Shown: positions 1 to 27,575 of the stretch, piece by piece
How positions within the stretch are numbered: position 1 is the stretch's first letter
How the letters are laid out: the number at the start of each line of letters is the position of its first letter
Translations under genes and position numbers: made by a program
The notes under the pieces: model-generated
What the model saw: the letters and a program-made list of their open reading frames with translations, nothing else
Databases searched by the model: none
Told to the model about the DNA's origin: nothing
DNA from: Eledone cirrhosa
Lineage: Eukaryota
DNA length: 64,000 nt
Assembly (NCBI GenBank): GCA_964016885.1
Contig: OZ024742.1
Coordinates: 100,936,001-101,000,000 of the forward strand
Direction: 5' to 3'

Positions 1-24
1 AAGGTCAACGAAAGAAAAAATAAA
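1..24 (+). CDS. ADGRL: Latrophilin-like adhesion GPCR, 3' end of the exon encoding intracellular loop 3 (window-truncated)
   Basis: Reads RSTKEKI + AA, then donor GTAAGT at 25. The phase-2 end joins exon 14643 to give ..KEKIK-GWIRGAW.., matching the latrophilin NIK-SWVxGA junction before TM6. Confidence 0.75.
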
Positions 25-7484: not shown

Positions 7485-8200
7485 GATACATAAACATTTA
7501 AACATTTATTTGTCGGACTTCCAACAAATTAAATACCCCTTCTACTTATATATATATATATATATAATAAATGATTGATAGACAGGATATATATACATAT
7601 ACAAAAGGAGCGGTGCACTGGACAAAGAAAAAAACAGAGATGGACAGTCCCATCTCCTCAGTCAACCTCTGGAAATCACTACAGTTTTGGTGCATTAAGG
7701 TTGATACCATTTATTCCAGTGCACATTGGGTCAAAAAGAAATATTCCTTACACTAACACTGTTGTCATGTACCTAAATGACAAGTCAGTGTAATAAATAT
7801 CTATATACTACAACTCATCCCACAGATTCAGCACTTTACCAAATTATGCTACTCTATACATGTGTGCGTGTGTGTATGTTTGTGTGCAGGTGTTATTGTT
7901 ACAAGGATATCTTTGGTGCATCGCTCATATACACTCACATAAACTATCAAACACACACACACAATTATCTTTGTGCCTTAGTTTCATCTTAGAATGATAT
8001 GATGTAAACCTTTAGGTTGTTTTTTTTTTTTTGTTTTTTTTTTATATTTTATTTTCGTTTGACTTTATTTTTCCACACATTATCATATTTATGGGTTGTT
8101 GTTTTTTTTTTGTTTCATTGTTGATGTGTATTGTCTCCCCTTGTTTGGCCTGTGTGACATTCTAATGGCAACTTCCTTCTTTCCCTCCCTACTGCTGCAG

Positions 8201-8275
8201 TGGACACCTGAGCACAAGCAGTGACCTCGCTCTGTGCGGCTCTCAATCCAAACTCTCCTATCTGGCAGATATTCC
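8201..8275 (+). CDS. ADGRL: Candidate 75-nt alternative cassette exon in ICL3 of the latrophilin-like gene
   Basis: Polypyrimidine tract plus CTGCAG acceptor (8171-8200), donor GTAAGA at 8276, length divisible by 3, open in the required phase 2-2: (N)GHLSTSSDLALCGSQSKLSYLADI(P). It is a GC-rich island in an AT-rich intron. Confidence 0.65.
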
Positions 8276-8290
8276 GTAAGACATTCAAGT

Positions 8291-8296
8291 TGCATG
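8291..8296 (+). promoter_or_regulatory. TGCATG (Rbfox-type UGCAUG) element 15 nt downstream of the cassette-exon donor
   Basis: Exact hexamer in the position where Rbfox proteins typically enhance inclusion. The hexamer is also common by chance in this genome. Confidence 0.4.
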
Positions 8297-8504
8297 TTCT
8301 AAATGTAACCTGTCTCCCTGTGCAAAGCAACAAAAAAAAAATGAATAAATAAATAAATGGAATAGTGTGTGTGCATATGTGAATGTGTAAATATATACAT
8401 GTGTCTCTGTATGTTTGCGTGTTGTTGTTTGCTTGAAACATTGCAGAATATGACAAAAAAACATAGACAGGGTTTTTTATAGTAATGCTAATTGAACATT
8501 AAAT

Positions 8505-14365: not shown

Positions 14366-14514
14366 CTAGGTGAAGAGTTACAGTTGTACCAGTTTAGCTA
14401 GGTGAAGAGTTACAGTTGTACCAGTTTAGCTAGGTGAAGAGTTACAGTTGTACCAGTTTAGCTAGGTGAAGAGTTACAGTTGTACCAGTTTAGCTAGGTG
14501 AAGAGTTACAGTTG
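14366..14514. repeat. Perfect 32-bp minisatellite, about 4.6 copies
   Basis: CTAGGTGAAGAGTTACAGTTGTACCAGTTTAG at 14366, 14398, 14430, 14462 and partially at 14494. Confidence 0.97.
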
Positions 14515-14642: not shown

Positions 14643-14811
14643 AGGATGGATCAGAGGTGCCTGGATATTGATAATTTTGCTTGGTCTCACTTGGATCTTT
14701 GGTTTGTTTTATGTCAACCAAGAAACACTCTTCATGGCATATATTTTTAACATTCTGAATAGTTTACAAGGATTGTTTATTTTCATTTTCCACTGCCTTT
14801 TGAATGAAAAG
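14643..14811 (+). CDS. ADGRL: Latrophilin-like adhesion GPCR exon, TM6-TM7 (secretin/adhesion 7TM_2 family)
   Basis: TTTCAG acceptor, 169 nt, AAG|GTAAAT donor. GWIRGAWILIILLGLTWIFGLFYVNQETLFMAYIFNILNSLQGLFIFIFHCLLNEK contains the family motifs LLGLTW and NSLQGxFIFIFHC. Confidence 0.95.
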
Positions 14812-14867: not shown

Positions 14868-15370
14868 TCTGATGCCATGATGATAAAATGCATCCAGTAT
14901 ATTCTCTAAAGTGGTAGTGCTGGTGCAATGATAAAATGTATCTGTACGGTCTGTGAAGTAGAAGTGATGATGTCATGATAAAATGCCCCAAGTACATTCT
15001 GTAAAATGGCAGTGCTCGTGTAATAATAAAATCTACCCAGTTCATTTTTTATAAAGCAGTAGTGCTGGTGCCATAATAAAAAAAATCGCCCAGTCACTCT
15101 GTAATGTGTTAATACTGATGCCACGATAAAATTCATCCAGTACATTCTATCGAGTAGTAGTGTTGGTGCAATGCACCAAGTACACTCTGTAAAGTGTTAG
15201 TGCTGGTATCATGATAAAAGGCATCCAATACACTATGTAAATTGATTCGAATTTGGAAGGGCACCAGCTGTAGAAGCCATGCTGTCAAAATATGGAGAGC
15301 ATAAGCTAGATATCTCAGTGTTGTCACATCCAGCCCATGTCAGCACGGAAAATGGATGTAAGATGATGAC
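14868..15370 (+). mobile_element. Array of degenerate ~43-bp units ending in an RTE-type 3' tail (SINE-body derivative)
   Basis: About 8 units of GTGCTGGTGCCATGATAAAATGCACCCAGTACACTCTGTAAA, then GAAGGGCACCAGCTGTAGAA and ..CACGGAAAATGGATGTAAGATGATGA. Confidence 0.7.
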
Positions 15371-16385: not shown

Positions 16386-16511
16386 GTTTGTAAAGAGTAC
16401 AAAAAAGCTATTAAAAGCTCAACTTGGCTTCCAGAATGTATTAAACCATGTTGTGGAGCAGCCTCTACAGACAGATCCTCAACTCCAAATCCTTCAACAT
16501 CTTCAGGAAAT
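16386..16511 (+). CDS. ADGRL: Latrophilin-like adhesion GPCR exon, helix 8 and proximal C-tail
   Basis: AACAG acceptor, phase 0-0, GTAAGT donor. VCKEYKKAIKSSTWLPECIKPCCGAASTDRSSTPNPSTSSGN continues NEK-VxKEY as in latrophilin KKVRKEY, with a CC motif. Confidence 0.9.
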
Positions 16512-18020: not shown

Positions 18021-18090
18021 TATTTCTCCAGACTGCTCAAGAAAAGGAAAAGTTCTACGACTAGCAATATCAGCAAGACCCCTGCTAGAA
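18021..18090 (+). CDS. ADGRL: Latrophilin-like adhesion GPCR, 70-nt C-tail exon
   Basis: TTGCAG acceptor, GTAAGT donor, YFSRLLKKRKSSTTSNISKTPAR+A. Its 0-to-1 phase change is exactly what puts the terminal exon in frame. Confidence 0.8.
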
Positions 18091-19539: not shown

Positions 19540-20411
19540 TTCGTAGTCCTGTGAGCGCTGATACAACTGGTGAGTCAGACTACCACACATCCAAGCGAGG
19601 CTCTTCAGAATATGACTATCCAGCACACCATTTACCAAACAGGCTTTCCTACAATGACCAACATATGTACCATGATGTTAATGAGCTGTCATTAGCTGAC
19701 TGCTCAGTGATCAACAGTGACTATGTCAGCGAGTACTGTCAAACTAATCTCCAGGTCAGCCATGAGAATCAACTGAGTCCAGTGATATCTATCGACTCTT
19801 GCGCAGATTCTGAGACAGATTCCATTGTCAAGAGACGAGATTCCATTCTCTCAAGAGACTCGAATATTCAAGCGAGAGATTCATTCGAATCAGACGACAA
19901 AATATTAGGACTTGATGCCGATCTACTGAAATTAGCTGAAAAAGAGAAGCTCAATGAAGAATACGAACCGCTTATGTACCCAAACTCTACGACGCTGGAA
20001 AATCGCAACCGAATTAACGAGATGTTGAACAAAGCCGACATGAACGGTGCCGGCGATGTTGATAGCATCAATAATGGTGCCAACCCCCCATTAAGATCTG
20101 TGAATAACTATCATGTGACACCAATGTGTCATCCAGAGAAGCAGCAATTGGTGGAAGATAGTAGCCAGCAACCTTTATTGCAGACCGATATCATCGGTAA
20201 CCCTACTTGCATGAGTGAAAACGCTGCATACCGAGACACATCACATTCCAATCCTTATAACTCTGTTAATGTTGCTATGCCCAATGGCACCAACAGCAGT
20301 GACAAACCTCTAACAGACAGAGTGAAGCACAGAGTACTCGGAGAACCGCATTCCAATATAGTCAAACACAACAAAAGGACTGAAGAACTTCCGAGTTTTT
20401 CAGAATGTTAA
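19540..20411 (+). CDS. ADGRL: Latrophilin-like adhesion GPCR terminal coding exon (long, probably disordered C-tail ending ..ELPSFSEC)
   Basis: Long pyrimidine tract plus CTAG acceptor (AG at 19538-19539). Phase 1 gives IRSPVSADTTG.. in frame with the 286-aa ORF; non-repetitive coding-like composition; stop TAA at 20409-20411. Confidence 0.88.

Positions 20412-25418: not shown

Positions 25419-27575
<2,157 letters not shown>

Follow-up and report, generated by a model that had tools for sequence, protein, structure and literature searches.

An optional, phase-matched exon in a coleoid latrophilin's third intracellular loop, with candidate neural splicing signals, lies in an intron slot common to several animal phyla

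Few natural switches have been shown to alter the G-protein choice of latrophilins, and splicing in the third intracellular loop (ICL3) is among them. Does an octopod latrophilin carry such a switch, and is it ancestral or re-invented? The question arises from a short intronic segment of the Eledone cirrhosa genome. The window analysed here is a stretch of 64,000 nucleotides (contig OZ024742.1, positions 100,936,001 to 101,000,000, forward strand), in which a first-pass annotation made from the sequence alone had proposed a hidden 75-nt cassette exon lengthening ICL3 of a latrophilin-like receptor by 25 residues. Optional, phase-matched inserts in this loop occur, among the matches listed, in molluscs, ribbon worms, arthropods, echinoderms, acorn worms and vertebrates, and their presence across these six phyla makes the choice between an ancestral and a re-invented switch testable.

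The host gene has the domain set of an invertebrate latrophilin-type adhesion GPCR. Its orthologue P0004 contains RBL/Gal-lectin, GAIN, GPS and secretin-type 7TM domains (PF02140, PF16489, PF01825 and PF00002, respectively), and its best PDB match is ADGRL3 (E 5e-139). The architecture of vertebrate ADGRL1-3 includes an olfactomedin domain (PF02191), which is listed for Anableps ADGRL3 proteins, whereas Pfam did not place it among the domains of P0004 or of the Argonauta protein P0002. Immunoglobulin-type domains (PF07679 and PF13927) were found by Pfam in P0002 and in the decapodiform P0012, and not in P0004. The same gene also has a second splice choice: in O. sinensis and O. bimaculoides alike, isoforms X1 and X2 are set apart by an extracellular segment of 8 residues (P0081 residues 376-383), located about 36.5 kb upstream of the window, near contig position 100899400.

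A spliced fit of the O. sinensis protein to the window plus 150 kb of upstream sequence yielded 22 exons separated by 21 GT-AG introns. It covered P0004 from residue 85 to the end, spanned the window and 124 kb upstream, and chose exactly the cassette boundaries, phase and open frame that had been proposed. All exons and splice elements described below lie on the plus strand. The cassette exon occupies 8201..8275 (75 nt, phase 2-2), with AG at 8199-8200 before it and GT at 8276 after it, the latter opening the donor GTAAGA (8276..8281); it thus has the AG/GT ends, the frame-keeping length and the open frame of a cassette exon. Its region has a single match in the 3.0-Gb genome. The constitutive TM5/ICL3 exon upstream is 95 nt long, of which 71 nt lie upstream of the window and the 3' end at 1..24, with a phase-2 donor at 25. 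The constitutive TM6-TM7 exon downstream (14643..14811, 169 nt) also joins in phase 2, and the flanking introns measure 8.2 kb upstream and 6.4 kb downstream of the cassette. The fit continues through an exon encoding helix 8 together with the proximal C-tail (16386..16511), a C-tail exon (18021..18090) and the coding part of the last exon up to the stop codon (19540..20411). The inserted 25 residues fall in ICL3 just ahead of TM6 and end in Asp-Ile-Pro.

Orthologues of the gene have both included and skipped isoforms, as expected of a cassette exon in ICL3. RefSeq predicts ADGRL2-like isoforms in O. sinensis (XP_029639839-42) and O. bimaculoides (XP_052826051-57), and in these predicted (X) models X1 and X2 carry the insert and X3 lacks it. 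The tally is two long forms and one short form in each octopus, and one long and four short in a decapodiform cluster. The difference is exactly 25 residues between X1 and X3 of O. sinensis and between the decapodiform P0101 and both P0012 and P0098; X1 and X3 of O. bimaculoides show the same long and short ICL3 loop. P0101, which carries 24/25 insert residues and differs from its two short counterparts by a single gap, is a full-length frame of 1334 aa on a 4952-nt Logan contig and clusters with a cuttlefish protein; given that complete frame, it most likely derives from spliced mRNA. Short forms alone were seen in one Argonauta model and in all members (7/7) of a second decapodiform cluster, and the coleoid proteins examined have ICL3 inserts of 0 or 25 residues and no other length.

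The cassette peptide is also unusually constrained. It is identical at 24/24 residues to those of O. sinensis and O. bimaculoides, with mapped exons outside the cassette at 88% identity to O. sinensis. Against P0101 it scores 23/24, the highest of the 20 internal exons, the other 19 totalling 558/910. This conservation lifts the exon above chance. Contigs from two related organisms (A and B) cover 8108-8315 and differ there at four substituted positions and by one missing base. Two of these changes (8228 and 8240) are exonic; both are synonymous by hand-read codons, and the branch point, TGC motif and splice sites are unchanged where covered. The TGCATG downstream of the donor is intact in three of four sequencing runs of the relatives, the contig of the fourth stopping at 8279. 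Since these contigs run unspliced through the cassette and its flanks, with no joints, and may represent DNA or pre-mRNA, they were taken as conservation data only. A conserved hairpin was considered as a reason for the flank conservation and rejected (RNA fold of 8108-8320, z +1.21; 183/200 shuffles fold as well).

Splice-site strength tells a different story from the one first proposed. Scored with a matrix derived from the remaining 20 donors and 20 acceptors of the gene, which is small, T-rich and hence rough, the cassette donor scores 1.7 (5.3-11.6 for the others) and the acceptor 4.7 (6.6-18.9), each the lowest of 21, and the earlier description of a good acceptor and donor did not hold. 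The same intron contains 52 open, frame-keeping AG..GT candidates, 15 of which (cassette included) score at least as high as the cassette, and we therefore rejected splice-site strength as proof of the exon. None of the other candidates matches an insert in the coleoid proteins examined. These scores are what speaks for a pseudo-exon or prediction artefact that stays unspliced in Eledone cirrhosa. That reading is extremely improbable in view of the identical peptide in two other octopuses, the near-identical one in a transcript-derived decapodiform protein and the synonymous nature of both exonic changes in the relatives. We regard it as practically certain that 8201-8275 is a real alternative exon. 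The term hidden holds for the annotation of the window, from which the exon is absent; the exon itself is already known as a RefSeq annotation in two octopus species, where an identical 25-residue insert sits at an identical junction (in other species and as database annotation only), and taken alone it is only modestly surprising. No paper discussing the octopus insert isoforms was found in the literature searched.

The surrounding intron was compared with known classes of regulated exons. eMIC-dependent neural exons combine weak splice sites with long AG-free zones, acceptor-proximal UGC motifs, UC-rich tracts and CUAAY branch points, and the eMIC is confined to neurons in non-vertebrate bilaterians (PMC8797185; sources with PMC numbers are cited here from the portions available). 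The cassette shares these traits with eMIC/Srrm234 (SRRM3/4) exons. Its acceptor is preceded by an AG-free zone of 183 nt (8016..8198), the second longest among the 21 acceptors and a length reached by 28 of about 10,955 AG gaps in 214 kb. Within this zone lies a consensus CUAAY branch point, CTAAT, at -39 (8162..8166), and no other of the 21 acceptors has CTAAT between -50 and -15. A UC-rich polypyrimidine tract follows (8172..8190; pyrimidine 0.95), with a C fraction of 0.50 against 0.05-0.35 at the other acceptors. A TGC at -8 (8193..8195) matches the eMIC/SRRM4-type motif described in PMC8797185, and one of the other 20 acceptors has such a motif, at -6. All four features coincide at 1/21 acceptors, that of the cassette, in a comparison for which the motifs were picked after the fact and the reference set was the 20 other sites. 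The likeness ends at size: fly eMIC targets have a median of 31 nt and short introns (PMC8797185), whereas the octopod cassette has 75 nt and long introns, outside the very-short-exon, short-intron pattern of the class. In the available supplements of PMC8797185, Cirl appears in GO lists in all of the 22 listed occurrences out of 26. A PF15230 profile search of the genome was blank, with a control likewise silent.

A second candidate element lies on the donor side. UGCAUG in the proximal downstream intron promotes exon inclusion via RBFOX, and motif search places a TGCATG, conserved in the relatives' contigs as described above, at +16 (8291..8296), where the first-pass annotation had pointed it out as a regulatory hint. 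No other of the 21 donors has this motif within 100 nt. The 14.6-kb intron holds 14 copies, however, giving a chance of about 4% that one falls within 50 nt of a donor, so the element weighs little by itself. On sequence grounds, the eMIC-type acceptor, which had been overlooked, is the stronger regulatory hint of the two.

We propose that the weak splice sites would leave the exon skipped by default. Its inclusion is likely promoted by Srrm234 in the neuronal eMIC form, acting on the AG-free zone, branch point, UC tract and UGC, and RBFOX bound at the downstream UGCAUG may assist. Inclusion in octopus is likely neuron-biased. A real, conserved exon free of neuron bias, with inclusion that is broad or falls in some other tissue or stage, and with any consequence for signalling, is the rather unlikely counterpart to this. 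It gains from the chance rate of the TGCATG and from annotated isoforms, since long forms are the majority in many groups (among the matches listed, 12/15 in Mytilus and 7/7 in Crassostrea), which fits broad inclusion; it has to contend with the fact that the cassette alone combines all four eMIC-type acceptor features with a downstream TGCATG, and with the neuronal bias seen for the vertebrate exons that occupy this slot.

ICL3 splicing of latrophilins is already established in mammals. In mouse Adgrl1-3, the exon before the ICL3 site ends with a split Lys codon in all three genes; Adgrl1 exon 21 and Adgrl3 exon 23, each 92 nt long (PMC13108381), have this split-Lys ending in common with the octopod TM5/ICL3 exon. 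Over this stretch the mouse Adgrl3 exons measure 67, 92, 27 (exon 24, optional) and 169 nt (PMC13108381; the 169 nt of exon 25 counted by hand), and those of the octopod gene 67, 95, 75 (optional) and 169 nt. The flanking-exon lengths and split Lys codon indicate that the intron position and phase are common to mouse and octopod. Mouse Adgrl2 has two optional ICL3 exons in tandem, exon 23 (45 nt) and exon 24 (27 nt) (PMC13108381), and tandem ICL3 splicing in Lphn2/3 was confirmed by a review (PMC6629964). Thus, the vertebrate mini-exons mentioned in the first-pass annotation do lie at the same site: Adgrl3 exon 24 and Adgrl2 exons 23 and 24 are, like the cassette, frame-keeping and optional in the same phase-2 intron (PMC10830413, PMC13108381, PMC12236479), though at 27-45 nt, and in tandem in Adgrl2, they differ from the single 75-nt octopod exon. 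A 9-residue insert at the same ICL3 place distinguishes PDB entries 7wy5 and 7sf7.

The vertebrate exons are neuron-enriched and alter coupling in mouse and human, in line with the earlier statement that ICL3 shapes G-protein coupling; neuronal bias and coupling effect alike have been measured in mammalian latrophilins only. Adgrl2 exon 23 is included at approximately 74% in glutamatergic, 49% in GABAergic and 7% in endothelial cells (PMC13108381), and the 45-nt Adgrl2 exon is classed as eMIC-sensitive and the 27-nt Adgrl3 exon as neural (PMC8797185; matched to the ICL3 exons by length). Exclusion of Lphn3 E24 moves coupling from Gs to G12/13 (PMC10830413). The human LPHN2 ICL3 insert (v13) lowers G12/13 activation, and the ICL3-insert variant of LPHN2 is the sole variant without tethered-agonist-dependent arrestin-3 binding (PMC12236479).

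How the octopod insert might act was approached through two AlphaFold models, which have low confidence in ICL3 (block pLDDT 39-73), differ in species and construct, and contain no G protein. In the O. sinensis 7TM part with the insert, a loop is predicted at 210-225 (pLDDT <50 at 210-228), a short helix forms in the second half of the insert, and the TM6 helix starts from the residue after the Pro. In a decapodiform fragment without the insert, TM6 begins 11 residues before the junction Gly. The models are compatible with a cytoplasmic TM6 that is shortened and stripped of its basic residues. When the exon is skipped, TM6 is predicted to begin on its cytoplasmic side with the basic stretch that precedes the junction; when it is included, the terminal Pro is predicted to delay the start of TM6 by about 10 residues and to leave a loop that is flexible and rich in Ser. 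If mouse Lphn3 E24 and human LPHN2 v13 are a guide, the insert would lower G12/13 coupling and favour Gs, and we think it probable on this analogy that the insert alters G-protein coupling.

The insert could instead be a phosphorylation or docking segment for GRK, arrestin or a scaffold, leaving G-protein choice as it is. A Ser/Thr content of 7/24 residues, the predicted short helix, and a near-invariance across coleoids that exceeds the need of a plain spacer and suggests a binding partner all point that way. This alternative is nonetheless quite unlikely, considering that the human LPHN2 insert variant both lacks agonist-dependent arrestin-3 binding and activates G12/13 less (PMC12236479) and that insert sequences vary between phyla. 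Taken jointly, the observations lean, if gently, towards an optional 75-nt exon with likely mainly neuronal inclusion and a likely shift in G-protein choice. With its unusual constraint and clear candidate cis-elements, the coleoid exon offers a ready probe for cephalopod neural splicing.

To place the exon in animal evolution, we compiled 35 homologue groups from two protein searches and three cluster listings. The second search was made with an insert-bearing query and therefore favours long forms; its best 120 of 4993 matches were used, with 15 members listed for each of three larger clusters. Among the matches listed, both short and long loops occur in 25/35 groups, on both sides of the protostome-deuterostome split. 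They comprise cephalopods, bivalves, gastropods, a chiton, nemerteans, an insect, a crustacean, chelicerates, echinoderms and a hemichordate, and one such group, Haliotis, depends on a doubtful model. Three groups (Crassostrea and two fishes) showed long forms only and seven short forms only (Argonauta, one decapodiform cluster, Lingula, annelids, Strigamia, Branchiostoma and Ciona), again among the matches listed. In a quick tree made without ICL3, proteins grouped much as species do, with Branchiostoma and Ciona outside the main clade, so the insert-less proteins of these two may not be orthologues. As judged from the proteins, 42/43 long forms are compatible with an insert placed in phase 2 at the last residue ahead of the TM6 exon, and 22 of these fit phase 2 alone. 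The Haliotis rubra long form, compatible with none of the phases and altered in the stretch upstream, was set aside as a faulty model.

Resemblance among insert sequences is confined to shelled molluscs, arthropod subgroups and ambulacrarians, with nothing consistent between phyla. Shuffle tests covering 19 inserts found those of cephalopods, bivalves and gastropods to resemble each other (most pairs p <0.1, partly through a shared terminal motif), and complete bivalve and gastropod inserts end in Asp/Glu/Gln-Ile/Leu/Val/Met-Pro. The insect insert likewise resembled the crustacean one, the two chelicerate inserts were similar to each other, and so were those of ambulacrarians (p 0.002-0.004). 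Across phyla the same tests gave no consistent similarity. The octopus insert showed none to that of Lates ADGRL2, the one vertebrate insert compared (shuffle p 0.285 and 0.299), and p for the fish ADGRL2 insert was at least 0.14 in each of its 18 comparisons. The tests do not support homology with the vertebrate insert, scattered cross-phylum values of p <0.05 being expected among 342 comparisons.

On this sequence comparison, the cross-phylum pattern is that of a common slot; a common exon is not demonstrated. The earlier choice between ancient and convergent is thereby narrowed: the slot in the intron is old and shelled molluscs likely share a single homologous exon, but the octopus insert bears no similarity to the fish one (p about 0.29). 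We infer that one exon was inherited across cephalopods, bivalves and gastropods and that the old phase-2 intron also came to host optional exons of unrelated sequence in other phyla. Whether those exons arose independently in molluscs, nemerteans, arthropods, ambulacrarians and vertebrates, with the intron acting as a splicing hotspot, is a matter on which the balance tips slightly to yes. Besides the absent cross-phylum similarity, which is weak evidence since short disordered inserts diverge quickly, insert lengths range from 10 to 84 residues, tandem exons occur in several lineages, and short forms alone were found, among the matches listed, in Lingula (8/8), three annelid proteins and Strigamia (1). 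Pulling the other way are the breadth of groups with both forms on either side of the protostome-deuterostome split, the doubtful orthology of the insert-less amphioxus and Ciona proteins, and an Asp-Leu-Pro near the end of the first mini-exon of the fish ADGRL2 insert, which resembles the molluscan ends, one codon off. A single bilaterian origin of the optional ICL3 exon falls just short of an even call. The fuller scenario of an ancestral bilaterian neuron-regulated G-protein switch, in which one exon has persisted under eMIC/RBFOX control since the protostome-deuterostome split, with turnover of its sequence and a coleoid version frozen almost unchanged, is doubtful, if worth stating.

A comparable case is Fgfr IgIII, a bilaterian hotspot of recurrent alternative splicing where, likewise, one old position has, in several bilaterian lineages, alternative exons whose sequences are unrelated (PMC5703972); the latrophilin slot differs in lying in an intracellular loop that contacts the G protein. 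The available part of the same study reports no Esrp-dependent exon common to different phyla, and conserved tissue-regulated exons between phyla as rare (PMC5703972). In the literature searched, which lacked most subscription papers including that on eMIC origin (PMID 30833759), no paper on invertebrate ICL3 inserts or on a cross-phylum slot was found. The available portions of PMC6667449 and PMC8379844 contain nothing on either subject, that of a Drosophila Cirl preprint mentions ICL3 as a tag site only, and the ExOrthist main text does not mention latrophilin.

Several further observations were made along the way. Combinatorial tandem ICL3 inserts occur in Lineus, Apostichopus and Patiria (P0130, P0230-P0239, P0162, P0281-P0291, P0164 and P0316-P0323), reaching 84 residues and up to 8 loop forms and resembling the tandem arrangement in vertebrate ADGRL2. 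An ICL3 mini-insert of 10 residues is alike in echinoderms and the hemichordate Ptychodera (P0148, P0146, P0282 and P0221), a candidate conserved 30-nt exon. In the window itself, the receptor C-terminus (19540-20411) ends in Phe-Ser-Glu-Cys, which looks unlike what we take to be the class I PDZ-binding end of vertebrate latrophilins. Minisatellites flank the TM6-TM7 exon on either side, with a 32-bp unit at 14366-14514 (4.7 copies, 100% match) and a 48-bp unit at 14880-15032. The window is rich in other simple repeats, and the long stop-free frames at 25429-27574 are due to a degenerate TA microsatellite of 2.1 kb.
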